A stretch of DNA of 22,141 nt from IMG/VR virus record IMGVR_UViG_2675903433_000026, positions 1 through 22,141 of that record. One strand, 5' to 3'. The translations under genes were made by a program, and so were the position numbers. Below the pieces are notes generated by a model, which saw only the letters and a list, made by a program, of their open reading frames with translations, had not been told where the DNA came from and searched no databases. Below, in pieces: positions 1 to 21,245 of this stretch (within the stretch, counting starts at the first letter, position 1; each line of letters starts with the position of its first letter). Source of the DNA: a virus (Duplodnaviria; Heunggongvirae; Uroviricota; Caudoviricetes).

Positions 1-65
1 CGTTTCTGGCAGGAGTAAAAGCGCCAGATAAATTCAGGGCGTGCGCAAGGATTGGCATTAACCAT
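1..65 (-). CDS. Possible 5' end of a gene running off the left edge (N-terminus MVNANPCARPEFIWRFYSCQK...)
   Basis: ATG at 63-65 (minus) preceded by a GAGG Shine-Dalgarno-like sequence; frame stays open to the window edge; lies downstream of the operator at 366-398. Partial and unverified. Confidence 0.2.
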   Translation of the reverse strand, partial: MVNANPCARPEFIWRFYSCQK

Positions 66-365
66 AGTTACGGCCTCATGTACAGGTTTAACAACCTGCT
101 ACCCGCTGTCAAACAGGTGGCAGGACGTGACGGGGTTGACAGACTGGCGTACATGAAACCAGCAGGCCGAAGCCTCCCCATCACGCCCCACCATAATTCG
201 GGCGTAACGTGGTTTACGGACACAAAAATACCGCAATATCGGATATCTGCGGTTGTCCGCATGTACATTCAGGCTGTCAAACCCGGTCGCAGAATTTACT
301 ACGACGTAGGAACTATAAGCCTGAACAACAGGAAGATCAATAGTCTGGCGTTCGATGGTAGTTTA

Positions 366-398
366 TTTGCTCTAATAAATCAAATTTATTAGAGCAAT
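366..398. promoter_or_regulatory. Palindromic pair of C1-repressor-type operators, overlapping by 1 nt
   Basis: Minus-strand 17-mer at 382-398 is a 17/17 match to ATTGCTCTAATAAATTT; plus-strand 17-mer at 366-382 (TTTGCTCTAATAAATCA) matches 14/17. Together they form a 14-bp inverted repeat with a 3-bp spacer. Confidence 0.7.
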
Positions 399-444
399 AA
401 GCGGTGTCGTAAAAATCAATACAATCGCAATCATATGAATAGAA

Positions 445-1443
445 TCAATCATTACCGCGCGACGGTTTCTGCGTGATAAACGTTTCAAGCATCTTTTCCG
501 CAATTGCCGACCAGGTGTGACACTGGACCTTTTCAGCATTTTTCACGCGATCAACGCGAGCAATAACCTCATCCCAATCAATCCGCGACTTGATAACCAT
601 ATGGTTCACCAAAGCCAGGCGATCTGGCGGAAGGCAATCTGGCGGCGTTAATATCAACGCCCCACACATTGCCGCCTCAAGAACAGTTAATCCAAGGCTT
701 TCGGGATGCGTAACGATAAAAACGTCACTCTTACGCAATTCAGCTGCAAATTCGGTTGCTGGTACCGGCGTCCGTCTGTATGGAGTTACCGAAATATTCC
801 CCGGATCAATGGTAACCAATCCGTCATCGGTCAACGTTCTGGCCTCATACGGAACGGTCAGACGCTGAAGGTTCATAAGGATACTTAAGGAGTGATCAAA
901 CCCACTAACATCAAATGCAGCGTGGTCTACAAAAATACGCAGAACATCGTCTGTCTTGATTTCCAGATGGAACAGTTCCTGATTCGCTGCCCATCCAACA
1001 TGTTTGTTAAAGCGATTATGACGCTCTAACCTGCCGGGATTATCCAGGTACCGCCAGGTATCATCGCGGACAGTAAAAGTAATATCGACTGGTGCCGAAT
1101 CCAGCATAGAACCGTCATATACCTGGGCTACCCATCCAGAGAATCGGCGACACAGTTGCATGCCTATTTCCCTGGGTACCGTAGTAAAATACCTCAATCC
1201 TGGTGCCAAAATGGCCTTCGCAGAACATGCGGTCGCAGCAGTCAACACAGCTTCAACATAATCCTCCGGGCTTTCGACGCCAGGGGAATATGGACGATGG
1301 TATTGCAATGTTACCCCTGCCTCACTAAAGGCGCAGGCCAGGTTATAAGCCCACATTTCCGTATATGTTTTCACATCACTGATGGCTTCAAATTTTCGCC
1401 CAATGATCAGGATGTTCATCGGCTTTTCCTCATTCCATTGCAT
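445..1443 (-). CDS. GT-B fold glycosyltransferase-like protein (332 aa) in the 'downstream of ban' position
   Basis: ATG overlaps the ban stop (ATGA); AAGAGGA Shine-Dalgarno upstream. C-terminal HPESLGLTVLEAAMCGALIL resembles the GT4/GT1 E-x7-E donor-binding motif; N-terminal MNILIIG resembles a Rossmann start. Function assigned from motifs only. Confidence 0.55.
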   Translation of the reverse strand: MQWNEEKPMNILIIGRKFEAISDVKTYTEMWAYNLACAFSEAGVTLQYHRPYSPGVESPEDYVEAVLTAATACSAKAILAPGLRYFTTVPREIGMQLCRRFSGWVAQVYDGSMLDSAPVDITFTVRDDTWRYLDNPGRLERHNRFNKHVGWAANQELFHLEIKTDDVLRIFVDHAAFDVSGFDHSLSILMNLQRLTVPYEARTLTDDGLVTIDPGNISVTPYRRTPVPATEFAAELRKSDVFIVTHPESLGLTVLEAAMCGALILTPPDCLPPDRLALVNHMVIKSRIDWDEVIARVDRVKNAEKVQCHTWSAIAEKMLETFITQKPSRGND

Positions 1444-2807
1444 TAATAATCCTCTTGCCAGTCAGCACCGGCATAGTTATCAAACCGTGAGTATTGGCCG
1501 TTAAAAGCCAATCTCACCGTGCCAATTGGGCCATTTCGTTGCTTTCCGATAATTACCTCGGCAATGCCCTTCATTTCGCTATCCGGGTGATAAACTTCGT
1601 CGCGATACAGAAACATGATCAGGTCTGCGTCCTGCTCAATTGCTCCTGATTCACGTAAATCTGAATTTACCGGTCGTTTGTCCGCACGCTGTTCAAGCGA
1701 TCGATTAAGTTGTGACAATGCCACCACCGGTACTTGTAATTCCTTCGCCAACGCCTTCAGTGAGCGAGAAATCTCGGCAATTTCCAGCGTTCGGTTATCT
1801 TGCAGCTCGGGGACGCGCATAAGTTGCAGGTAGTCGATCATAATCATGCTCAAACCACCATTTTCTTTATAAACACGACGAGCGCGGGAACGAAGCTCTG
1901 TAGGTGTCAGGGCGCTTGAGTCATCAATAAAAATATTCTGCTTGTCCAACAGAATACCCATTGCGCCAGAAACCCGCGCCCAATCATCGTCGTTAAGTTG
2001 CCCCGTTCTAATACGAGTCTGATCAACGCGTGCAAGAGAAGCCAGTGAGCGCATCATCAGCTGGTGGCTCGGCATCTCAAGGCTAAAAACCAATACGGGC
2101 TTATCGTTACGAACTGCGGCATTTTCGACGAGATTCATCGCAAACGTGGTCTTCCCCATAGATGGGCGGGCGGCGACAATGATGAGATCGGACGGCTGAA
2201 GCCCCGCCGTCTTCTTATTGAGATCGGTAAATCCCGTATCAAGCCCCGTTACACCATCATGCGGTCGCTGAAACAACTCTTCTATGCGAGATACCGTTGC
2301 ATCGAGAATGCTGGCGATATCTTTTGGACCACTACCGCTCTTTTGTCGTTTTTCAGCTATTTCAAAAACGCGGCGCTCGGCCATATCCAGCAATTCATTG
2401 CTGCCCCTGCCATCCTGCGCATATCCAGCTTCGGCTATTTCATTTGCGACGGAAATCATTTCACGAACAACCGCGCGTTCACGAACGATATCCGCATAAG
2501 CACAAATATTTGCCGCGCTGGGCGTGTTCTTTGACATCTCCGCAAGGTACGCAAAACCACCGGCGCGTTCTAATTTACCGTTCTGTTCAAGTGCTTCAGC
2601 AAGTGTTATCAAATCAATCGGTTTGCCATGACTTAATAACCTCTCCATCTCACTGAAAATTTCACGATGAGCACTGGTATAAAAATCATCAGCAACTATA
2701 CGATCTGCAACTTCATCCCAGCGGCAGTTATCAAGCATTAAGCCACCAAGCACAGCTTGTTCTGCACTAAGGGAATTTGGCATGGATTCAAGAGGGGATG
2801 CAGACAT
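1443..2807 (-). CDS. ban: Replicative DNA helicase, DnaB family (Ban-like, 454 aa from the ATG at 2807)
   Basis: Walker A ARPSMGKTTFAMN, DnaB N-terminal domain (AEQAVLGGLMLD...), conserved RecA-like core. GGTGGAG Shine-Dalgarno before the ATG at 2807; the ORF track extends to a TTG at 2822. Confidence 0.9.
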   Translation of the reverse strand: MSASPLESMPNSLSAEQAVLGGLMLDNCRWDEVADRIVADDFYTSAHREIFSEMERLLSHGKPIDLITLAEALEQNGKLERAGGFAYLAEMSKNTPSAANICAYADIVRERAVVREMISVANEIAEAGYAQDGRGSNELLDMAERRVFEIAEKRQKSGSGPKDIASILDATVSRIEELFQRPHDGVTGLDTGFTDLNKKTAGLQPSDLIIVAARPSMGKTTFAMNLVENAAVRNDKPVLVFSLEMPSHQLMMRSLASLARVDQTRIRTGQLNDDDWARVSGAMGILLDKQNIFIDDSSALTPTELRSRARRVYKENGGLSMIMIDYLQLMRVPELQDNRTLEIAEISRSLKALAKELQVPVVALSQLNRSLEQRADKRPVNSDLRESGAIEQDADLIMFLYRDEVYHPDSEMKGIAEVIIGKQRNGPIGTVRLAFNGQYSRFDNYAGADWQEDY

Positions 2808-3087
2808 TAGCACTCCACCCAAGCGTGCTGAATGTCAGATATAATCGGCATACTCAAATCACTCCTAACGATATGAGTCATCACCAGAAAATCAGGATTA
2901 ATTCGCCGGACTCTTCCCGGCTGTCACACCGAATCGCCAGGATGGTGAATCCGCAGTCCGACGCTATGAACGGGGCTTGCACATTCCGGCTACCTGGTTT
3001 GTTGCCTGAGCTAGGGGAAAGGTTACCCCTTTAACGTCACCAGACCGCTAACGACGCATGTGCCAGACGCCGTGTTACAACCAAATA

Positions 3088-3163
3088 TGGTGGCCCCTAC
3101 CGGACTTGAACCGGTGACCGTGCGATTATGAGTCGCCAGCTCTAACCACTGAGCTAAAGGGCC
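3088..3163 (-). tRNA. tRNA with CAU anticodon, most similar in pattern to the lysidine-type tRNA-Ile2 (ileX-like); tRNA-Met not excluded
   Basis: 76-nt cloverleaf read on the minus strand: acceptor GGCCCTT/AGGGGCC, anticodon arm GGCGACTCATAATCGC, T-loop TTCAAGT, encoded CCA. Confidence 0.85.
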
Positions 3164-3190
3164 GGATTACTGCCAATTTTGCTTACGCTT

Positions 3191-4018
3191 TTATTTCACC
3201 GGAACAAACGGAACAGCGGTATTACTGGTCATATACTTCGGTAATGTACCGTTCCATTTGTTGATCGCTTCCAAGTCCATAACACCTGGGTTCTGGCGCA
3301 GAGCTTCACCACGTAAACGAATGGCATCAGCTTCGGCCTGGGCTTTTGTGCGAATAGCATCAGCCTGTCCGGCAGCTTCCGCGCGCAGCATGTTGGCCTC
3401 TGCTTCACGTTGTTTGACCTCTTGCTCGCGTTGCAGGGTTTTTTGGTTTGCCGTGACTTTGGCGTTAATACTGTCAATAACTGTTGGCGGGTATTCTGGC
3501 TTACCTACATAAGAGAGGCTCATCACCTGAATGCCGATTGGCGTCATTTCTTCCTGAATGTCTTTAAGGGCTGCATCAAGCAATTCAGATTTGCCACCGT
3601 CGATAAATTTGTCGGTGGTCATTTTGCTGGCTAATCGGTTCAGAGCATCTGCAACCTTCTGGCGTAGATCGGTATCAGTAATATCATCTACACCTTTGCG
3701 ATAGGTCTGAAATACCGTTGTGACTTTTGCTGGATCAACCTTGTAGGCTACGCCGATGTGGTAACCAATGGTTGTTCCGTCGCTCATCTGGAAGCTGAAC
3801 GGCTCATCGTATGTCTTCATTTGCTTAAAGGTCGGGAAGATATAAACTTCAGTATTCAAGCCTGTCCAGTAGCGACCAACGCCAACTACTTCACCGATAC
3901 CTTTATCATCCCCCAGCTTATTTACTTTGATCCCTACGTTACCTGGCTCTACCCGATCGCATCCGGTCAGACATAAAGAACCCAAAATAATCGCTGCACT
4001 AATCAACGTTTTTTTCAT
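3191..4018 (-). CDS. plp: Lipoprotein, SPFH/band-7-like (plp-like, 275 aa)
   Basis: Signal peptide with lipobox LTGC (MKKTLISAAIILGSLCLTGC); C-terminal coiled-coil Ala/Glu-rich region; AGGAAA Shine-Dalgarno. Gene symbol is by position and similarity to the P1 arrangement. Confidence 0.7.
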   Translation of the reverse strand: MKKTLISAAIILGSLCLTGCDRVEPGNVGIKVNKLGDDKGIGEVVGVGRYWTGLNTEVYIFPTFKQMKTYDEPFSFQMSDGTTIGYHIGVAYKVDPAKVTTVFQTYRKGVDDITDTDLRQKVADALNRLASKMTTDKFIDGGKSELLDAALKDIQEEMTPIGIQVMSLSYVGKPEYPPTVIDSINAKVTANQKTLQREQEVKQREAEANMLRAEAAGQADAIRTKAQAEADAIRLRGEALRQNPGVMDLEAINKWNGTLPKYMTSNTAVPFVPVK

Positions 4019-4235
4019 TAATTAATTTCCTGGTTTTTTCACGAAAAAAGACTACTGCGAAAGCCGGGTAAATGAGCGCGAGAAGGACTCCCAACAATAC
4101 AAGTATTGTGCTGTTAGATGAGATCATATTTGGCAAAAGCCAAACATACAGAACCAGTGACACAATCAAACAGAGGACGGCATAAATATATAACCGCACC
4201 CATAGCGTTCGACATTTGTTCGGATTGTTCTGCAT
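3999..4235 (-). CDS. Small two-helix membrane protein (upl-like, 78 aa)
   Basis: Two hydrophobic stretches (IYAVLCLIVSLVLYVWLL and ILVLLGVLLALIYPAFAVVFF); GGAG Shine-Dalgarno; overlaps the plp start by 20 nt. Confidence 0.5.
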   Translation of the reverse strand: MQNNPNKCRTLWVRLYIYAVLCLIVSLVLYVWLLPNMISSNSTILVLLGVLLALIYPAFAVVFFREKTRKLINEKNVD

Positions 4236-4464
4236 CCTCTCACTCCATTATTTAACGAATAAAAAAGCTGCGGTGCCGGGTTCCTCCCGGTGTCCTTTGG
4301 CTGGTTATCCACCGTGGACGTGGAAACAAGGAGAAATAATGGACAGATATAACCATTTCCCCGCGTGCGCTTAGCCGCATTCACCGCAACGGAAAGAGCA
4401 TTCTTGGTGGACCTGTAGATTGGGATATGAACCCGTTACAGGAGAATGCTCTTACCTGTTATGT

Positions 4465-4540
4465 TGGTGCCGATTAACGGGATCGAACCGCTGACCATTC
4501 GCTTACAAAGCGACTGCTCTACCAACTGAGCTAAATCGGC
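4465..4540 (-). tRNA. tRNA-Thr (anticodon UGU)
   Basis: 76-nt cloverleaf: acceptor GCCGATT/AATCGGC, anticodon loop TTTGTAA, T-loop TTCGATC, encoded CCA. Confidence 0.85.
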
Positions 4541-4544
4541 AATG

Positions 4545-4631
4545 TGGTGGGGAGTGATGGAGTCGAACCACCCGAGTCGCAATGACAGTAGATTTACAGT
4601 CTACCCCGCTACCCCTACGGACTAACTCCCC
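4545..4631 (-). tRNA. Type II tRNA with GUA anticodon (tRNA-Tyr-like) with a long variable arm and atypical D arm
   Basis: 87 nt: acceptor GGGGAGT/ACTCCCC, anticodon stem GTAGA/TCTAC with loop CTGTAAA, long variable stem-loop (GTC ATTGC GAC), T-loop TTCGACT, encoded CCA. The D-arm pairing is non-canonical, so identity is less certain. Confidence 0.6.
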
Positions 4632-4636
4632 TAAAG

Positions 4637-4711
4637 TGGCGATGGTGGGTGGATTCGAACTACCGACCAGTTGGTTAACAGCCAACTGCTCTACCGCTGA
4701 GCTACACCATC
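4637..4711 (-). tRNA. tRNA-Asn (anticodon GUU)
   Basis: 75 nt: acceptor GATGGTG/CACCATC, anticodon stem GTTGG/CCAAC with loop CTGTTAA, T-loop TTCGAAT, encoded CCA. Confidence 0.85.
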
Positions 4712-5379
4712 ACTTGCCGGGTACGTCTCCGGCGAGGGCTTCCACCTCCGTATGCTTTTCGGCGCACCGCGCCATGGCTGCAATTCGGTAACAGGGGATG
4801 CATAACCCTGGCTTCCAGCGTGATTAGCGCCTTCAGCATGACGGGATATACCCGTAAATTCGTGGAACTGTACCCAAAGTGCTGTTAAGCACCGCTGTTA
4901 CGCTGAAAAGAAAACGCAACAGGAAAGGACGCTGACCAACAGATGGCCCCTTCTCGTTCATCTGGTTAATCACACCAGCGCCCTTACCTGTTGTGCCTCC
5001 CCGTTCCCTAATACACAGACGGGGACACTCTGCGGTCGATTTTTTGACGGGGGACGACTCATACCCCATGGCATCTGGCTTCTTAGGCCGCTACCATCAT
5101 CAGATCATCGTTTGCATTTACTTTAATGGTCAGTTTCTAAACCGCCGCAAAGTCGCTAACCATGACGAAAACCCTGAAAAAAACGCCCACCCGAAGATGG
5201 GCAAACTGGACGCTCGTAACGCACTTCGGCGTTGCCACTTAGGCGCATGGTCAACCTGGCAACTCGGCGTCATGATGGGGAAGGAGTCACTACCCCGCCA
5301 TACTTGCCGCCGCGCCTGTCGCGGCTAACAGCTAAATCGCTCTATAAATCACGATTCATTGAGTCGATATTACACTAAT

Positions 5380-5396
5380 AAATTTATTAGAGCAAT
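5380..5396 (-). promoter_or_regulatory. C1-repressor-type operator (17/17 match) followed by a TAATAT -10-like hexamer, at the head of the tRNA-upl-plp-tRNA-ban operon
   Basis: Minus strand reads ATTGCTCTAATAAATTT then attagtg TAATAT; the operator overlaps the last codons and stop of the methyltransferase gene. Confidence 0.7.
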
Positions 5397-8300
5397 ATAG
5401 CTATAACGTCATGAGCAACACCTCGAGTGTCTCCCTTACAAGACACAGAACGTCTGGCAAAAAGAGGTTCCACTCTGAAGCCACTGTCATGATAAAGCTC
5501 TCTGATGTTTGGCGCGCCACTGTTAGTAATGAGAACTTTCGCACCTCGACGATGAGCATCCGTCAACAGAGACACCAGGCGTTTTTGCTCTTCAAACTTA
5601 AAGTCATGACCGGAATAGTTCGTGAATCCCTCTGTATTTGGAAGCGGTTCATACGGCGGATCGCAAAAGATGACATCTCCTTCTCCGGCAGCTTCAATCA
5701 CCGCTGCAAAATCACCGCATACAAACTCAGACCGCCCTTCCGCACCGAGGAAGGCTTCCATCTCCTGTAATGGGAAATACGGAGTTTTATACTTCCCATA
5801 ACCGACATTGAACTCACCGGCCTGGTTGTAACGCGTCAATCCGTTAAAACAATGTCGGTTCAGGAACAAAAACGCCGCTGCGCGATGTAAATCATCATAG
5901 ACTTGTTTGTTAAACGCATTCCGTACTGCCAGGTATCCTTCCTGTGTGTTGTAGTCCTGGAAGAAACGATGTGCCAGAGTGATAAGTGAATGCGCCTCGC
6001 GTTGCAGAGTCTTGTAAAAGTTAATCAGGTCAGCATTCACATCATTTAGCAGATTTTCCTGGTATCCGGCATTCATGAAGACAGCTCCGCCACCAACGAA
6101 AGGTTCAATCAGGCGCTTCCCTTCTGGCAAATAGCGAAAGATTTGTTCCAGAACACCAAATTTTCCACCAGCCCATTTGAATATGGACCGTTCGAATTCT
6201 GCCGCTGGTTTAACTTTTCGCTCTTTTGTTTCACTCCCTTCCTTCTGCCGACATGCAGCCTTGGCAATCCGATCGCCAATCCAGCGCATTACTGGTATCG
6301 CCATACTATTGCCGATCGCTTTGTAACGCGGTCCGTCAGCTGCAAGCATCGCGGCCTCTTCTTCGCTTAAATCTGGATAGTGATTGCGAAGATATGCCAG
6401 TTCATCTGAATTAACTTTTTTACGCTTTTCCGTCGGGATCAACGTATGCCCATCAGGAAAACCTTGCAGCCTTTCACATTCGACAGGGGTAAGACGGCGG
6501 ACAGCTACTTCTGCGTTTCTTACTTCATAGCAAACAGCTGTTGGATTTTTAGCCATTAGAGATGGTGAAGTATTCTTAGTTGCAGCATGTTGTGTACCGC
6601 TCATACGCTCAGGAAAAGCCAATGTAACAAGATGCTCATGGCTTTCTTGCTCACGTGCCCGCAATGTACCATGCCCTTCTGACCAAAAACCTGCTCCTGT
6701 GCTGCTAAAAACGGCAAGGTCAGTGGCATCTTTAAAATCTCTTGCCTTTACTGTCGATGCGGTTTCATCGTCAATATATTCCCCAAATGCTGCCATCCTG
6801 AAAGCGTTTACGGCTTTCGTCGATTTCATACTGGGTGGCATGTCAGCGTGTAGGCATGGATTTAGGCTTTCGCCACTGATTGCAGCGCCATTTGCAATAA
6901 TGGCGGAAGCGATTTCCTTCTTTTTTCGGCTCGGCGCAATATTCCGGCGCACGCCTTCGAACTCAAAAAGTACCGTTGCGGGATCGAGGTCTGTTCGAGC
7001 ACTTGCGACAACAAACACGCGTCGGCGTCGTTGTGCCACTCCGAAGTATTGGGCATCAAGGATTCTCCAGGCCACCTTTCGCTGCGGTCCATAAATACAA
7101 CCACACTGCGGCCACTTTGGAGCATGGCAACCGGTTTTGCCATCCCACCGCCAGAACGCGTTACTTTTTCCTGATTCAGGTCGATCACCTGGTTCAAATG
7201 GCGCATCTTCTCCAGCCAATCCGGCAAGGAAACATCCGAAGGCGTTATCTGCCGATGACAAGACTCCTGGGACATTTTCCCAGACGATAACGGATGGTTT
7301 GAGAAATGACTCAGCCCGTTTGTCGTCAACTGCATTTGCAAGCTCCACATACTTTAAAGTTAGCGCGCCACGCTCATCATCAAGCCCACCACGTAATCCC
7401 GCGATACTGAATGCCTGACAGTTATGGACCACCGCACCATTGAGGATATAGGAATGATCACCTTCGACTTCTATGTTGTATACAGTATCTAGGCCTACCG
7501 ATTTAAACTCTTTGACTGTTCGTAAAAGCATTCCATGAGCCAATCTTGATTTACGTGACAATTTCTGCGGGCAGATTGTTACCTGATAATAATTCCGTTG
7601 ATTTACCACGCGATCCTCGATCACTTTTTTGGGCTCAACTTCAATAAAGCTGACCGAAGAAACATAACCACAAGTCTGTGACAACCCCGCAACGCCCCAA
7701 GCAAGCGCAGAACTAACACTATTAATTCTAAATCCCGCTTTACCACTTGGTGTCCCATCAGTATCAAGATAGCCTTGTAAAAACACATGACGCAATGGAT
7801 GCGACATCACCCATGCAGGGATACGCTTAGCATGGCTTAACTCGCCAAAATGTTCATTAAGCCAATTGGCATAACACGTATCATTCAAGGTTACTTTGAT
7901 GCTCCCTCGGATTTCGCTTGCCACGGAAAATATGTTTTCTGGTATGCGGCAATGAAACTTTCTCAATTTCTGGCAATTTATGCCAAAAACAACCGCCTTC
8001 TTAGATTTACCTCTCCATCTCCTAATATATCCATCGCCAACATAAGCGCCCGCAAGATACATAGCCTGTTCTTCAGACAAGAACCGAGAACAAATATCTG
8101 GAAATGCAATATTGAAATTAGTTAGAGCGCACCATTGATATCCCGGCATATCACATGCTGCTCGCCATTCCGGTTCAGACAACAACTCTCTCTTAAAATA
8201 TGTGCCATTTTTCCGGGTGTTTTGGGCTTTCCACCGAACAGCCAGGAAGGGATGGTCATTGGTTGTTCTTATACCTAAAGGCTGCCCAACGGCATTAAGT

Positions 8301-12287: not shown

Positions 12288-12394
12288 ACATTGACTATAC
12301 GCGATTTTATGTTGACTGTGCACGATTTATTGTTGACTGCACGCGATTTATTGTTGACTATATGCGACAGAAACATTGACTGTACGCGATTTTA
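12288..12394 (+). repeat. Five direct iterons (about 21-22 bp period) upstream of repA (origin/incC-type)
   Basis: Units (c/t)aTTGACTnTacGCGAtTTa at about 12288, 12310, 12331, 12352 and 12374. Confidence 0.85.
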
Positions 12395-12469
12395 GAGCCT
12401 GACTATTCACAGTTGTTGATAACTGCAATCCAGATGACGCCAGGCCGCGCCACATATGGAGAAACCACG

Positions 12470-13354
12470 ATGCTGGAAGAAAATAAAGGCTTCCTTAGCG
12501 TTGAAGAAGTTGCAGGAAATACAGGAGAAATCCACAGCCTGAAACCCAATAACAATAGCACTATACAACCCATTGCTTTGTTGCGCTTAGGTGTGTTTGT
12601 GCCAACCTTAAAATCTACCAATGTGGCACTACGTCGCGGATCGTCAGTTACTACAAACACAACGAACGCAACCGAAGAACTATCAAGCCTCAAAATTGTT
12701 GAGCAGGAAGGCTATGAGGGAATTGAAATTCATGGTCCACGCCTGGATATGGATACTGATTTTAAGGTGTGGGTGGGCATAACCTCCGCGTTGTTTGACT
12801 ACGCACCTGATGATGACGGCATAATCACCCTGCCATTCTCCGAGTTTGCCGATCGATGCGGCTATCCACGTAAGCGCCTTTCAAAGGCGTTCCGTAAAAG
12901 TATTGATGACTCTCTGACACGCATTCAGCAGACAGTTGTCAAATTCCGCTTCCCGGCGGCAAAAGGTCATCTCAATAACATTAACGTCAACTTGTTGGCA
13001 TATAGCAGCCTGAATACCGAGCTTGATGTTATCGAGATCCAGCCGCAGAAACAGCTATCTGAACTTTACTATGTTGACTATAAGCGAATCCTGAAGCTGA
13101 AGATGCTGGATAAGCTCGGGCGCAAAGAGACGGCCAAGGTACTGTATACATTCTTTGAGGCTCTACCCGCCAACCCGGCACCTGTCAGCATTGAGCGCCT
13201 TAGAGCAAGGCTTAATCTCAAATCATCCGTTAGCGTGCAAAATAGCGTTATCAGAAAAGCCATGAAAGATTTGGAAGCTATTGAATATCTTAAATTTTCA
13301 GAGATAAAAAACGGCAGGAAAATCGGCTTTCAGATCCATAAGCGCAATCCATAA
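12470..13354 (+). CDS. repA: Iteron-binding replication initiator RepA (294 aa from the ATG at 12470)
   Basis: Positioned between the two iteron arrays; GGAGA Shine-Dalgarno before the ATG at 12470 (the ORF track begins at 12413). Protein shows the conserved core pattern (ALLRLGVFVP, GPRLDMDTDFKVW) I recognise from P1-type RepA initiators. Confidence 0.8.
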   Translation: MLEENKGFLSVEEVAGNTGEIHSLKPNNNSTIQPIALLRLGVFVPTLKSTNVALRRGSSVTTNTTNATEELSSLKIVEQEGYEGIEIHGPRLDMDTDFKVWVGITSALFDYAPDDDGIITLPFSEFADRCGYPRKRLSKAFRKSIDDSLTRIQQTVVKFRFPAAKGHLNNINVNLLAYSSLNTELDVIEIQPQKQLSELYYVDYKRILKLKMLDKLGRKETAKVLYTFFEALPANPAPVSIERLRARLNLKSSVSVQNSVIRKAMKDLEAIEYLKFSEIKNGRKIGFQIHKRNP

Positions 13355-13625
13355 TATTGACTATATGCGATAGCGAGAAGTTGACTATAGGCGACATTCG
13401 TTGACGCTGGTGGATTTTTGCTGGCGTCAATATTCTGCAAGTCGCTATTGAGATGGCTTTTAGGGTCATTTCATCGCGTATAGTCAACGTTTCTCCCGAC
13501 AATATCTTACATAGTCGATCTTTGGTGGAGTTAAATCGACTACAGTCAACTTTTGACTGTAGTCACATCGCGCATAGTCAACTATTCACATTAACTTTCG
13601 CGCATAGTCAACATTTGCGCGGTTC
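13355..13625. repeat. Downstream iteron array in both orientations (incA-type copy-control locus)
   Basis: About nine copies of the TTGACTATA(G/T)GCG-type iteron or its reverse complement (CGCGCATAGTCAAC and similar). Confidence 0.8.
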
Positions 13626-13646
13626 TCATCAAGCAGTGGTATTGAT

Positions 13647-13982
13647 ATGCAAGAAGAGAAACAACACTACCTCTACGTTCTGGTGCCGGAGAACGGAGAT
13701 ACTTTTAAAATCGGCATTTCATGTGGTCCATTGGCACGGTTTAAAGGGCTACAAGTGAGTCCCGATTTTGCGCTTTCACGGGTCTATCGTGGTACGCGTT
13801 TGGCAATGGTTAATCTTGAGCGGGCTTTACACGCAACCTTTTTCCCCTGGAATGCGCCGTGGGAGAAAAGCGCCGGTGGCGGGCATACTGAATGGTTTAC
13901 ACGAGAGTGTCTTGATAAGGTTTTGGCTCATATCGAATATCTAAATGATATGTGGGGAGGGATTCTCGAGCGCATTAAGTAG
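13647..13982 (+). CDS. T5orf172-type (GIY-YIG-related) domain protein (111 aa)
   Basis: Pattern YLYVLVPENGDTFKIGIS ... LERALHATFF ... HTEWF matches the T5orf172 domain signature; ends at TAG 13980-13982. Confidence 0.6.
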   Translation: MQEEKQHYLYVLVPENGDTFKIGISCGPLARFKGLQVSPDFALSRVYRGTRLAMVNLERALHATFFPWNAPWEKSAGGGHTEWFTRECLDKVLAHIEYLNDMWGGILERIK

Positions 13983-14051
13983 AATGATTTACTTCAGCGT
14001 CCAGTAGATGCTGCTCGCTCTTTCGAAAAAGAACTGGATGTTACTTCTATC

Positions 14052-14456
14052 GTGACTTTCAAAGATGACGCAGGAATGAGGGACGTGGCTTATGTCTCCA
14101 TATCTGGCTATGAACCGGACGCGATCCGCGCTCAATGTGAATTGCTGAAAGCAATGTTTATGCTTCGGACTAAATATCCCTGGGAGACAGGGCGGGTGTG
14201 CTTCCCTATGGAAGAGTTAACCGCCACCATTGATTCTCAGCTTTACCACGATAATCCAGAGAAGTTTTTTAGCCTTTTAGCCGGTAATGGGCTTAACTGT
14301 GTGTCCGGGCTGGGGCGAAGTAGAATCCAACATGCCTCGCTCTTCGGTCCCTTCTTTTACGATCGACACGGGTACTTTGAGGCTGAACTTCCGGCGCTTA
14401 CGCGTGCTATAGATACTATCGATTTCGAACGATTATTCGCTGCTCTTAGCAAATAA
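14052..14456 (+). CDS. Hypothetical protein (134 aa from GTG; first in-frame ATG at 14076), in the same frame as the upstream T5orf172 ORF
   Basis: Open frame continues immediately after the TAG at 13980; no good ribosome-binding site before the GTG or ATG; followed by a strong terminator. Confidence 0.4.
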   Translation: MTFKDDAGMRDVAYVSISGYEPDAIRAQCELLKAMFMLRTKYPWETGRVCFPMEELTATIDSQLYHDNPEKFFSLLAGNGLNCVSGLGRSRIQHASLFGPFFYDRHGYFEAELPALTRAIDTIDFERLFAALSK

Positions 14457-14463
14457 CACTGAT

Positions 14464-14485
14464 GCCCCTGAACGGGGCTTTTTTG
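14464..14485 (+). terminator. Rho-independent terminator
   Basis: GCCCC-TGAAC-GGGGC hairpin followed by TTTTTT. Confidence 0.75.
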
Positions 14486-14624
14486 TGCCTTTCTTGTAAC
14501 TCTCAATCGTGCAAAATGAACAAAACATGCAGAGAATGCCATGTACAAGCATCTACGCATACATTATTATTTTATGCAGCATTTTTAATTAAATTCAAAA
14601 ATACAGCATAAAGGATGACTTTCG

Positions 14625-15821
14625 ATGAGTGATTCCAGCCAGCTTCACAAGGTTGCTCAAAGAGCAAACAGAATGCTCAATGTTCTGACTGAACAAGTAC
14701 AGTTGCAAAAGGATGAGCTACACGCGAACGAGTTTTACCAGGTCTATGCGAAAGCGGCACTGGCAAAATTGCCTCTACTGACTCGAGCGAACGTTGACTA
14801 TGCCGTAAGTGAAATGGAAGAAAAGGGTTATGTTTTCGATAAACGCCCTGCTGGCTCTTCAATGAAATATGCGATGTCAATTCAGAACATCATTGACATA
14901 TATGAACATCGCGGAGTGCCAAAATACCGGGATCGCTACAGCGAAGCGTATGTGATTTTCATCTCCAATCTTAAAGGCGGTGTGTCAAAAACTGTATCGA
15001 CGGTTTCTCTGGCGCATGCAATGCGTGCTCACCCTCATCTTCTGATGGAAGATTTAAGGATTCTGGTTATTGACCTTGATCCGCAATCTTCAGCAACGAT
15101 GTTTTTAAGCCATAAACACTCTATTGGTATCGTAAACGCAACATCTGCACAGGCTATGTTGCAGAATGTAAGCCGTGAAGAGCTGTTAGAGGAGTTTATT
15201 GTTCCTTCTGTTGTACCTGGGGTTGACGTTATGCCTGCGTCGATTGACGATGCCTTTATTGCATCCGATTGGAGAGAGCTGTGCAATGAGCATCTACCGG
15301 GTCAGAACATCCATGCTGTCCTGAAAGAAAATGTGATTGATAAGCTGAAGAGCGATTATGACTTTATCCTCGTTGATAGTGGTCCTCACCTTGACGCCTT
15401 CCTGAAAAATGCTTTGGCCTCGGCCAATATACTGTTTACACCTCTGCCGCCAGCAACTGTCGATTTCCACTCATCGCTTAAATACGTTGCCCGCCTTCCT
15501 GAGTTGGTGAAACTCATTTCGGATGAAGGCTGCGAGTGCCAGCTTGCGACTAACATTGGTTTTATGTCCAAGTTGAGTAACAAGGCAGATCATAAGTATT
15601 GCCATAGCCTGGCTAAAGAAGTGTTCGGTGGGGATATGCTCGATGTCGTCCTCCCTCGCCTTGACGGTTTTGAACGTTGCGGCGAGTCTTTTGACACTGT
15701 TATTTCAGCTAACCCGGCAACGTATGTTGGTAGTGCTGATGCATTGAAGAACGCGCGAATTGCCGCGGAAGATTTTGCTAAAGCAGTTTTTGACCGTATT
15801 GAATTTATCAGATCTAACTGA
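14625..15821 (+). CDS. parA: Partition ATPase ParA (type Ia, with N-terminal DNA-binding extension; 398 aa)
   Basis: Deviant Walker A KGGVSKT, length and N-terminal helix-turn-helix extension typical of P1-type ParA; placed immediately upstream of parB and parS. Confidence 0.95.
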   Translation: MSDSSQLHKVAQRANRMLNVLTEQVQLQKDELHANEFYQVYAKAALAKLPLLTRANVDYAVSEMEEKGYVFDKRPAGSSMKYAMSIQNIIDIYEHRGVPKYRDRYSEAYVIFISNLKGGVSKTVSTVSLAHAMRAHPHLLMEDLRILVIDLDPQSSATMFLSHKHSIGIVNATSAQAMLQNVSREELLEEFIVPSVVPGVDVMPASIDDAFIASDWRELCNEHLPGQNIHAVLKENVIDKLKSDYDFILVDSGPHLDAFLKNALASANILFTPLPPATVDFHSSLKYVARLPELVKLISDEGCECQLATNIGFMSKLSNKADHKYCHSLAKEVFGGDMLDVVLPRLDGFERCGESFDTVISANPATYVGSADALKNARIAAEDFAKAVFDRIEFIRSN

Positions 15822-15837
15822 GGAGTAAGAAACCCCC

Positions 15838-16839
15838 ATGTCAAAGAAAAACAGACCAACAATTGGGCGAACCCTTAATCCTTCAATATTAAGCGGATTT
15901 GATAGTTCTTCAGCCTCTGGCGATCGAGTCGAGCAGGTATTCAAGTTATCAACTGGTCGCCAGGCCACATTTATTGAAGAGGTAATACCTCCGAACCAGG
16001 TAGAAAGCGATACCTTTGTTGATCAGCATAACAACGGGCGTGACCAGGCATCTCTTACGCCAAAATCATTAAAAAGTATCCGAAGCACTATTAAGCATCA
16101 GCAATTTTACCCTGCAATAGGTGTTAGACGGGGTACAGGGAAAATTGAAATTTTGGATGGTTCCCGGCGTCGAGCTTCTGCCATCTTAGAGAACGTAGGG
16201 TTGCGGGTTTTAGTCACGGACCAGGAGATCAGCGTTCAGGAAGCGCAAAATTTAGCGAAAGACGTTCAGACAGCATTGCAGCACAGCATTCGAGAAATAG
16301 GTCTGCGTTTGATGCGAATGAAAAATGATGGGATGAGTCAGAAGGATATTGCAGCCAAAGAAGGGCTGTCTCAGGCTAAGGTCACGCGTGCTCTCCAGGC
16401 AGCGAGTGCTCCGGAAGAATTAGTCGCCCTTTTCCCTGTGCAGTCGGAATTAACCTTTTCGGACTACAAAACGCTTTGTGCTGTTGGCGACGAAATGGGG
16501 AACAAGAATTTAGAGTTTGATCAGCTTATTCAAAACATATCCCCGGAAATAAACGACATCTTATCCATTGAAGAAATGGCCGAAGATGAAGTTAAAAATA
16601 AAATCCTGCGCTTGATAACAAAGGAAGCCTCACTACTCACGGATAAAGGTTCTAAAGATAAGTCCGTAGTTACTGAATTATGGAAATTTGAGGACAAGGA
16701 TCGCTTTGCAAGGAAGCGCGTGAAAGGCCGTGCATTTTCTTATGAGTTTAATCGACTTTCAAAAGAGCTACAGGAAGAACTCGACAGGATGATTGGGCAT
16801 ATCCTTAGAAAGAGCCTCGATAAAAAGCCGAAGCCTTAA
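15838..16839 (+). CDS. parB: Centromere-binding partition protein ParB (333 aa)
   Basis: ParB/Spo0J-like core (GRRRASA arginine-rich motif), helix-turn-helix region, follows parA after a 16-nt gap; parS immediately downstream. Confidence 0.95.
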   Translation: MSKKNRPTIGRTLNPSILSGFDSSSASGDRVEQVFKLSTGRQATFIEEVIPPNQVESDTFVDQHNNGRDQASLTPKSLKSIRSTIKHQQFYPAIGVRRGTGKIEILDGSRRRASAILENVGLRVLVTDQEISVQEAQNLAKDVQTALQHSIREIGLRLMRMKNDGMSQKDIAAKEGLSQAKVTRALQAASAPEELVALFPVQSELTFSDYKTLCAVGDEMGNKNLEFDQLIQNISPEINDILSIEEMAEDEVKNKILRLITKEASLLTDKGSKDKSVVTELWKFEDKDRFARKRVKGRAFSYEFNRLSKELQEELDRMIGHILRKSLDKKPKP

Positions 16840-18830: not shown

Positions 18831-20420
18831 ATGTCTCAATATTCAATTCAACAGTCATTAGGTAATGCATCCGGCGTCGCGGTTAGCCCGATCAATGCCG
18901 ATGCGACGTTATCTACCGGTGTTGCATTAAATAGCAGCTTGTGGGCTGGTATTGGCGTATTTGCGCGTGGCAAGCCGTTTACTGTTCTTGCGGTTACTGA
19001 GTCCAATTACAAAGATGTTCTCGGCGAACCGCTGAAGCCGTCTTCCGGCTCACAGTTCGAACCAATTCGCCATGTATACGAAGCTATTCAGCAAACGTCA
19101 GGTTATGTTGTTCGTGCTGTTCCGGATGATGCGAAGTTCCCGATTATTATGTTCGATGAATCAGGCGAACCGGCTTACAGTGCGTTGCCATACGGTTCTG
19201 AAATTGAACTTGATAGTGGCGAAGCCTTTGCTATCTACGTTGATGATGGTGATCCGTGTATTTCACCTACCCGTGAGTTAACCATCGAAACGGCAACAGC
19301 GGACAGCGCGGGTAATGAACGCTTCCTCTTAAAACTGACCCAGACGACTTCGCTCGGCGTGGTAACGACCCTGGAGACACACACTGTGTCTTTGGCGGAA
19401 GAAGCGAAAGATGACATGGGCCGCTTGTGTTATCTGCCTACGGCTCTGGAAGCCCGTTCTAAATATCTGCGCGCGGTTGTTAATGAAGAGCTGATTTCGA
19501 CGGCGAAAGTAACAAATAAAAAATCGCTGGCGTTCACTGGTGGTACCAACGGTGATCAGTCGAAAATCTCAACCGCTGCGTACCTGCGTGCGGTTAAGGT
19601 GCTGAACAATGCGCCGTACATGTACACCGCTGTTCTCGGCCTGGGTTGCTATGACAATGCGGCGATCACCGCGTTAGGTAATATCTGTTCTGATCGCCTG
19701 ATTGATGGCTTCTTTGATGTCAAACCGACATTGACGTATACGGAAGCGCTCTCTGCTGTTGAAGATACCGGTTTACTTGGTACCGATTATGTAAGCTGTG
19801 CTGTCTATCACTACCCGTTCTCCTGCAAAGACAAATGGACCCAATCCCGTGTGGTCTTTGGTCTGTCTGGCGTGGCGTATGCGGCGAAAGCTCGTGGCGT
19901 CAAGAAAAACTCTGATGTCGGCGGTTGGCATTACTCACCGGCTGGTGAAGAACGTGCCGTCATTGCTCGTGCGTCAATTCAACCGCTGTATCCGGAAGAT
20001 ACCCCGGACGAAGAAGCAATGGTCAAGGGCCGTCTCAATAAAGTATCTGTTGGCACCTCTGGCCAGATGATCATCGACGATGCTTTAACTTGCTGCACGC
20101 AGGATAACTATCTGCACTTCCAGCACGTCCCATCCCTGATGAATGCAATCAGCCGTTTCTTTGTCCAGTTAGCCCGACAGATGAAGCATAGCCCGGACGG
20201 TATTACTGCGGCTGGCCTGACTAAAGGGATGACCAAACTTTTAGATCGCTTTGTCGCCTCCGGCGCTCTGGTGGCTCCTCGTGATCCTGATGCTGACGGT
20301 ACAGAACCGTATGTGCTGAAAGTTACGCAGGCGGAATTCGATAAATGGGAAGTAGTCTGGGCCTGCTGCCCGACTGGCGTAGCCCGTCGTATCCAGGGCG
20401 TACCGCTGCTTATTAAGTAA
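18831..20420 (+). CDS. Hypothetical phage protein (529 aa), probably structural or late
   Basis: AGGGAAAG Shine-Dalgarno; same strand and tight spacing with neighbours; no motif I can name with confidence. Confidence 0.5.
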   Translation: MSQYSIQQSLGNASGVAVSPINADATLSTGVALNSSLWAGIGVFARGKPFTVLAVTESNYKDVLGEPLKPSSGSQFEPIRHVYEAIQQTSGYVVRAVPDDAKFPIIMFDESGEPAYSALPYGSEIELDSGEAFAIYVDDGDPCISPTRELTIETATADSAGNERFLLKLTQTTSLGVVTTLETHTVSLAEEAKDDMGRLCYLPTALEARSKYLRAVVNEELISTAKVTNKKSLAFTGGTNGDQSKISTAAYLRAVKVLNNAPYMYTAVLGLGCYDNAAITALGNICSDRLIDGFFDVKPTLTYTEALSAVEDTGLLGTDYVSCAVYHYPFSCKDKWTQSRVVFGLSGVAYAAKARGVKKNSDVGGWHYSPAGEERAVIARASIQPLYPEDTPDEEAMVKGRLNKVSVGTSGQMIIDDALTCCTQDNYLHFQHVPSLMNAISRFFVQLARQMKHSPDGITAAGLTKGMTKLLDRFVASGALVAPRDPDADGTEPYVLKVTQAEFDKWEVVWACCPTGVARRIQGVPLLIK

Positions 20421-20429
20421 GGGAATACA

Positions 20430-21245
20430 ATGAGCAAAAACTTTTTTCAATCCGGGGCATTTTTGGGGAATGGACTGTCTCGTTTCGCTTTGAACTCTGA
20501 TCCTGTGCAGCTGATGGAGTCTGCCCGAGCAAGCGCCGAACAGCCAACAGATCCGGTTATTAATAATAATCCGGAACCGGCGGCACAGACTAACGATAAC
20601 GTTCCATCTGCCCCGGCTCCTGAGCAAATCCTGGAAGGGAAAGACGGTAAAGAATGGACCGTCGAACAGGCGCACCAGATGATTCTGGAAGCTGCAAATA
20701 GAAGTGCTATGCAGAATGCGTTGAGTGATGCGGCCGACGCCGTTTTCGCCTGGGCTGATAGCGGTGATCTGACTTTCGACTCCCTTGATGGTTTCGTTCA
20801 GGCTATCGCTGGTATCTCTGATGACGACGACTCCGAAGTTACAGAAGAACAGGACGATGCCTATAACGAAGCATGGGCAAATGTTGCTGACTTCCTCGCA
20901 GCATGCGGTGTAGATGATGACCTGATCGAAGCACTGGCTGACGATGAAGACGACGACGCAGCTGCTGATGTTGGTGCCTCTATCGCTGGTTTAGATAGCG
21001 ACGACCGTGACGAACTGGAAGCGGCGTTTGTTGTTGCTGGCACTTCTGATGAAATGCTGACTGAAGCATTTAAGAAGGTTGTTCGTAACGGTGAGATCAA
21101 ACTCATCCGTAAACGCCTGCGTAAAAAACATCTGACTGCGGCTCAAAAATCGGCGCTGAAAAAAGCGCGTCGAAAAGCCCAGACGGGTGCGGCAAAACTT
21201 GCCCGCAAAAAGTCAATGAAACTGCGCCGTAAGCGCCTTGGCTAA
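20430..21245 (+). CDS. Highly acidic protein with a strongly basic C-terminal tail (271 aa)
   Basis: Asp/Glu-rich central region (DDDDSEVTEEQDD, DDEDDDAAAD) followed by KLIRKRLRKKHLTAAQKSALKKARRKAQTGAAKLARKKSMKLRRKRLG; AAGGGAA Shine-Dalgarno; starts 10 nt after the previous stop. Confidence 0.55.
   Translation: MSKNFFQSGAFLGNGLSRFALNSDPVQLMESARASAEQPTDPVINNNPEPAAQTNDNVPSAPAPEQILEGKDGKEWTVEQAHQMILEAANRSAMQNALSDAADAVFAWADSGDLTFDSLDGFVQAIAGISDDDDSEVTEEQDDAYNEAWANVADFLAACGVDDDLIEALADDEDDDAAADVGASIAGLDSDDRDELEAAFVVAGTSDEMLTEAFKKVVRNGEIKLIRKRLRKKHLTAAQKSALKKARRKAQTGAAKLARKKSMKLRRKRLG

Follow-up and report, generated by a model that had tools for sequence, protein, structure and literature searches.

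Here we report that two adjacent open reading frames (ORFs) of a P1-like phage-plasmid, which share one reading frame and are separated by a single TAG codon, are very probably the halves of one gene that was broken by a nonsense mutation, and therefore represent an ordinary pseudogene or truncated allele. The ancestor would have been a 269-aa two-domain protein encoded in the p0111-type replicon module of P1-like phage-plasmids, in which a flexible linker joins an N-terminal T5orf172 domain to a C-terminal domain of predicted winged-helix-like fold. In one lineage, a C-to-A transversion turned Ser112 (TCG) into an amber codon (TAG). Translation would then stop right after the N-terminal domain and yield a 111-aa product that lacks the C-terminal domain, and the 3'-terminal 474 nt would still be transcribed up to a shared terminator, with no conserved start of their own.

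The stretch of DNA analysed (the window; 22,141 nt) represents a P1-like phage-plasmid (Punavirus) of the SJ46 / RCS47 / pO111_2 type with a p0111-type replicon, and pO111_2 is 99.3% identical to it over most of its length. In elements of this type, the IncY repA of P1 is replaced by the "p0111" replicon. The features of the locus are listed in Table 1. The first ORF runs from the ATG at 13647 to the TAG at 13980–13982 (111 aa), and the same frame continues without interruption for 157 codons to the TAA at 14454–14456, just as the preliminary description of this DNA had it; the placement of the two ORFs between repA and parA was equally accurate (parA and parB together span 14625–16839). Based on nucleotide composition, an open stretch of 157 codons would arise by chance with a probability of about 3e-4, and the TAG at 13980–13982 is one of only two among the 1,928 stop codons in the six frames of the window that are preceded by at least 111 and followed by at least 157 open codons. 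The intact gene has been named gp57 (JL22) and 'GIY-YIG nuclease family protein' (RefSeq). It is also the unknown gene beside the p0111 repA in the paper on pSvP1, which has "2 orfs inserted between repA and parA" (PMC6906374). A literature search for T5orf172 in phage-plasmids yielded no reports, the gene being mentioned in two papers, solely as an unknown ORF that accompanies the p0111 repA.

Table 1. Features of the split gene and its surroundings (positions refer to the window).
Feature	Position	Strand	Remarks
repA (Rep_3-type)	12470–13354		Upstream of the split gene
Iteron-like repeat array, TCGCGCATAGTCAAC and complement	13352–13616	.	Between repA and the split gene
Whole ancestral gene	13647–14456	+	810 nt, 269 codons; one premature stop here; p0111-type replicon module
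Truncated 111-aa product with complete T5orf172 (GIY-YIG-like) domain	13647–13982	+	Pfam PF10544, residues 8–85; structure model
Premature amber stop (TAG, codon 112)	13980–13982	+	C-to-A at 13981; ancestral TCG (Ser); nucleotide comparison with L002 and L003
3' part of the gene, presumably untranslated or barely translated: linker (residues ~113–129) and C-terminal domain	13983–14456	+	Holds annotated 123-, 126- and 134-aa 'hypothetical protein' ORFs
Intrinsic terminator (GCCCC-TGAAC-GGGGC plus trailing T-run)	14464–14486	+	Closes a single transcription unit
parA	14625–15821		Downstream of the split gene

The comparison with related elements that the preliminary description had proposed showed that the locus is normally a single ORF in which a sense codon takes the place of the stop. 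In pHNCF11W-130kb, a single gene of 810 nt encoding a 269-aa "GIY-YIG nuclease family protein" is annotated at exactly the corresponding coordinates. Codon 112 reads TCG (Ser112) in the relative and TAG in the window, and this one base (C-to-A at 13981) is the sole cause of the split. The TCG codon was also present in L002, in L003 and in 39 of the 45 sampled copies. Allele-specific megablast searches, which employed 55-mers centred on the variant such that every 28-base seed spans it, recovered 388 TCG versus 12 TAG records from PLSDB and 383 TCG versus 28 TAG records from complete E. coli genomes. In approximately 93–97% of the related elements, the locus consists of a single uninterrupted gene of 810 nt, and TAG is present in 3–7% of the copies. 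The reconstructed protein matched the 269-position profile PHROG 2876 over its entire length (positions 1–269; E = 8.6e-194), and the 269-aa protein cluster at 90% identity comprises 1,241 members. A divergent orthologue with only 44% identity (P0004), which is located on a P1-like contig of 95.7 kb with a Rep3-gene-ParA-ParB synteny identical to that of the window, is likewise one continuous gene and has Asn at the position aligned with codon 112. Attempts to widen the family by a word-indexed search with the intact protein and the divergent orthologue, and by an exhaustive HMMER search with the C-terminal domain, yielded these two lineages only. Homologues are overwhelmingly one gene and do not consistently form two. 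Together, the TCG and TAG counts, the match to PHROG 2876 and the continuous orthologue argue for the first of the two alternatives put forward in the preliminary description, namely that a nonsense mutation split a protein of about 269 aa.

Neighbour joining of 29 distinct alleles placed the TAG alleles in one clade that is nested among the TCG alleles. The TAG is derived, arose once and is inherited clonally, and a minimal mutation explains it. All TAG copies in complete genomes are located on plasmids of approximately 72–108 kb, and the named serotypes that carry them are STEC O111:H8/H-, O157:H7 and O103:H2. Eighteen copies of the TAG clade (including the window), part of which were chosen for their identical 111-aa product, were compared. 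Upstream of the stop they differ by four synonymous changes, and the 474 nt downstream of it are unchanged. The block spanning ~13850 to ~14520 does not vary within the clade, and the few differences are recombination tracts that entered from the repA side. Comparison of L030 and L055 with positions 12470–13850 of the window revealed tracts from a different p0111 repA allele, whose last differences lie at 13847 and 13823, respectively; since these tracts end inside the N-terminal part of the gene and upstream of the TAG, the TAG haplotype must have recombined onto different repA backgrounds. The lack of changes after the TAG was considered as a possible sign of selection and rejected, because the block is invariant, the upstream changes are recombination tracts and the loci were preselected. 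By the same token, the undamaged state of the downstream frame is uninformative with respect to function, because the haplotype block is invariant and the clade is too young for decay. To call the mutation recent, as was done in the preliminary description, seems fair in view of the invariant block, though the allele is already found in several STEC serotypes.

A few records in this set deserve separate mention. One chromosome-sized record (L052; CP178336.1, 5.5 Mb; positions 1–6336) likewise contains the rep-gene-par block with the TAG allele, and the TCG allele occupies seven chromosomal places among the complete E. coli genomes; these chromosomal copies may represent integrated P1-like elements or assembly joins. 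In another record (L001; NZ_CP027223.1), which is 100% identical to the window over the split gene, three single gaps in 4.35 kb and an unannotated parA suggest either a frameshifted parA or homopolymer assembly errors in the record.

Constraint on the gene is weak, and independent events have disrupted it on many occasions. Across the 29 alleles, its pN/pS ratio is 0.32, with similar values in both halves, compared to 0.019 for repA, 0.002 for parA and 0.056 for parB in the same loci. Between the window and a divergent element (L048), RepA is 83%, ParA 89% and ParB 67% identical, and the protein of the split gene 44%. Among 43 IMG/VR loci that were retrieved without regard to allele, seven have a broken gene, which represents four independent events; of the neighbouring genes in these 43 loci, repA and parA are each broken in one (the parA case comes from a questionable assembly) and parB in none. 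Independent breaks include W68* in L041, whose 67-aa product is found on 95 contigs named for Salmonella and Enterobacteriaceae, Q228* in SJ46, and two 1-bp deletions in the copy of 673R5, which could be sequencing errors. In L046, a 1.76-kb insertion of the IS200/IS605 type (positions 3295–5057), comprising a Y1 transposase-like ORF and a 389-aa TnpB-like ORF, replaces nucleotides 295–523 of the gene. Further complete truncated forms of 91, 102, 124, 166, 173, 184 and 189 aa or with frameshifted tails were also encountered. Because the gene is dispensable and weakly constrained, such knock-outs are tolerated and recurrent.

The T5orf172 label that the upstream ORF had received is well founded. 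The Pfam domain T5orf172 (PF10544) was detected at residues 8–85 with 27.5 bits (cut-off 20), PHROG 681 ('endonuclease') was matched with E = 5.4e-9, and the top structural matches in BFVD are T5orf172 proteins. Motif-like residues (YLYVL, KIGIS, R31, E58, TEWF) are present and conserved in the orthologue with 44% identity. By sequence, the N-terminal domain belongs to the T5orf172 group of the GIY-YIG superfamily, and a role as nuclease is putative. An AlphaFold model of the intact protein, of low overall confidence (pLDDT 61.8), shows a beta/alpha N-terminal domain (residues 7–102), a linker of very low confidence (residues 114–129) and a C-terminal domain; the confidence of such models is limited because the two lineages do not permit a deep alignment. 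Codon 112 lies at the end of the N-terminal domain and just before the linker, so the 111-aa product comprises the T5orf172 domain in full and nothing beyond it.

By sequence, the C-terminal domain is an orphan; its predicted fold is winged-helix-like, and it presumably binds DNA. It had no match among the sequences of Pfam (scanned with residues 113–269), NCBIfam, PADLOC and PDB. A weak PHROG match to 'transcriptional regulator' (E = 0.26) was not relied upon. In an exhaustive HMMER search of 1.84 billion representatives, the domain was absent as a stand-alone protein outside the fragments of the split-gene family. At the level of the predicted fold, the WH1 domains of iteron-binding plasmid initiators (Rep_3: RepA of pPS10, RepE, Rep of MSBI1.176) provide a comparator. 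No sequence or profile similarity to Rep3_N or WH1 was detected, however, and an hhalign comparison with the RepA of the element gave a probability of 0.2. An identity as Rep-WH1 thus found no support in this profile-profile comparison and is a lead at the fold level only.

Iteron-like repeats (GTTGACTATxCGCGA) lie on both sides of repA. They are found upstream of repA (12291–12402); downstream of repA, they follow in the same orientation (13352–13397) and then inverted (13474–13616), and the last one ends 31 nt before the ATG at 13647. Because of this proximity of the inverted repeats to the start codon, the promoter of the split gene may overlap with RepA-binding sites. The same motif precedes the divergent orthologue P0004, where its translation created a spurious 'AYSQH' N-terminal extension of 41 aa. 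Likewise, ORF 13453–13758 in the window was rejected as a gene, since it arises from translated iteron repeats. A sub-threshold Rfam match to DUF2800 RNA over the array (13508–13650, minus strand; 21.9 bits vs a gathering score of 60.2, E = 0.27) is most likely due to chance.

The downstream fragment has no conserved start of its own and is not an independent gene elsewhere. Its annotated starts disagree (GTG at 14052 for 134 aa, ATG at 14076 for 126 aa, GTG at 14085 for 123 aa), and all of them follow the conserved DVTS motif (residues 131–134) and the first predicted strands of the C-terminal domain, such that the conserved residues 113–135 are cut off. The GTG at 14085 has a moderate Shine-Dalgarno-like match (–6.1 kcal/mol), but the best element is located just 2 nt away. 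Since the duplex energy at the true start of the gene is also poor (–2.8 kcal/mol), these energies do not discriminate. The impression that the second ORF is poorly provided with a start, already voiced in the preliminary description, is borne out by three discordant starts with weak or mis-spaced Shine-Dalgarno-like elements. No terminator-like or promoter-like site was detected on the plus strand between the TAG and the downstream ORF, and the only clean terminator follows the final TAA.

Four observations were counted against a gene split by a nonsense mutation, namely the annotation of two coding sequences in RefSeq, the wide spread of the TAG allele, the undamaged (though uninformative) sequence after the TAG and the Shine-Dalgarno-like match at GTG 14085. 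RefSeq lists the two pieces as ordinary coding sequences and not as a pseudogene (WP_001154680.1, and WP_001448561.1 or WP_000332218.1), and other pipelines also annotate two. This annotation, the neat cut between the domains and the moderate match at GTG 14085 would fit two real, separately translated genes, encoding a stand-alone T5orf172 protein and a protein of 123–134 aa, which as a nuclease-like and a DNA-binding module would work in trans. Such an arrangement is nevertheless very unlikely given the single gene in the great majority of homologues, a C-terminal domain that never occurs alone outside fragments of this family, and candidate starts that all drop the residues around the DVTS motif; moreover, the spacing of 2 nt at GTG 14085 and the lack of a promoter or terminator between the pieces speak against a second gene. 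An error of sequencing or assembly at 13981, which the preliminary description had also envisaged, would involve a single base and nothing else. Its probability is negligible, as it is refuted by population data: 28 complete E. coli genomes, produced by independent laboratories and on independent platforms, have this TAG, with pO111_2 of strain 11128 among the carriers, and an assembly collection has 4,810 indexed blocks with precisely this 111-aa product.

Programmed or leaky readthrough of the TAG at a useful rate, the second alternative of the preliminary description, would yield isoforms of 111 and 269 aa. The 157 open codons with a still undamaged C-terminal domain, the evolutionary success of the TAG allele and the A that follows the stop are compatible with it; in E. 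coli, an A after UAG does not make for one of the strongest termination contexts. Background readthrough of UAG in non-suppressor E. coli is about 1% or less, and programmed readthrough is exemplified by the A1 protein of phage Q-beta. The split gene resembles the latter in having an in-frame stop followed by a long open extension, but here the stop is a derived minority allele that lacks any identified stimulatory context. Because 93–97% of the copies and the divergent orthologue do not have the stop, it is not a conserved recoding signal. Downstream RNA structure is not unusual (z = –0.51), and an Rfam scan identified no element beyond the sub-threshold DUF2800 match. The four tRNAs encoded in the window have the anticodons CAT, TGT, GTA and GTT, and none has CTA, so there is no candidate suppressor among them; the young age of the clade, with its invariant haplotype block, accounts for the intact frame downstream. 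All this renders readthrough at a useful rate highly improbable. Trace readthrough or weak internal initiation may still occur, and meaningful expression of the downstream part appears unlikely.

The gene split by the nonsense mutation shares with other pseudogenes of this kind in clonal bacterial or plasmid lineages the single-base stop, the intact orthologues, the restriction to one clade, the weak constraint with repeated inactivation, and fragments that are called as separate coding sequences; a nonsense-split accessory gene is an ordinary kind of event. It shows no essential difference from a typical case; the cut coincides with a domain boundary, such that the 111-aa product retains a complete domain and might keep partial activity. 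The function of the truncated product would be lost or altered relative to the intact protein. The truncated form is at least neutral, given that thousands of assemblies and several serotypes now carry the TAG allele, and a function of its own is conceivable because the whole T5orf172 domain is retained.

In modular GIY-YIG endonucleases, such as I-TevI, a flexible linker connects the catalytic domain at the N-terminus to a DNA-binding domain at the C-terminus. The intact 269-aa protein is similar in its N-terminal domain of the GIY-YIG superfamily, the low-confidence linker and the predicted winged-helix domain at the C-terminus. Unlike I-TevI, it has no sequence similarity to I-TevI itself or to any solved structure, lacks an intron or intein context and is tied to a plasmid replicon module, and catalysis by its T5orf172 domain is putative. 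One might imagine that the intact protein is a replicon-coupled effector, in which a T5orf172 domain is fused to a Rep-WH1-like winged helix that would recognize p0111 or competing iterons and act in copy-number control, incompatibility or exclusion. We consider this unlikely. If it were true, the fast divergence (44% vs 83–89% identity for RepA and ParA) and the repeated knock-outs, including the TAG, would reflect selection and not neglect, and truncation at the domain boundary would leave a free N-terminal domain with altered activity. Any statement on whether the frequent inactivation is neutral or selected, or on the role of the intact T5orf172 and winged-helix protein, is speculative.

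For annotation, the nonsense mutation means that the halves, which are listed as two proteins in thousands of STEC assemblies, are better read as one disrupted gene. The C-to-A change in codon 112 cleanly marks a single clade, corresponding to one lineage of P1-like phage-plasmids of the p0111 type that circulates in O111, O157:H7 and O103:H2 STEC. The intact, uncharacterised gene accompanies the p0111 replicon, evolves fast and is often inactivated.

The window also contains a cluster of tRNA genes for Thr (TGT), Tyr (GTA) and Asn (GTT) at 4465–4711 on the minus strand and a separate tRNA gene with the anticodon CAT at 3088–3163 on the same strand, which is assigned to Met by ARAGORN and to Ile by RefSeq. 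Because reference P1 is known to carry only tRNAs for Asn, Thr and Ile, the tRNA-Tyr (87 nt) may be an additional tRNA that this phage-plasmid lineage carries as cargo; it does not represent a suppressor. Another pair of ORFs in one frame is located at 18831–21245 (plus strand), where the stop at 20418–20420 ends a 529-aa ORF and is followed by 274 open codons that include ORF 20430–21245. Since the homologues in L048 are separate genes of 529 and 274 aa, these are probably two adjacent genes that share a frame by chance.
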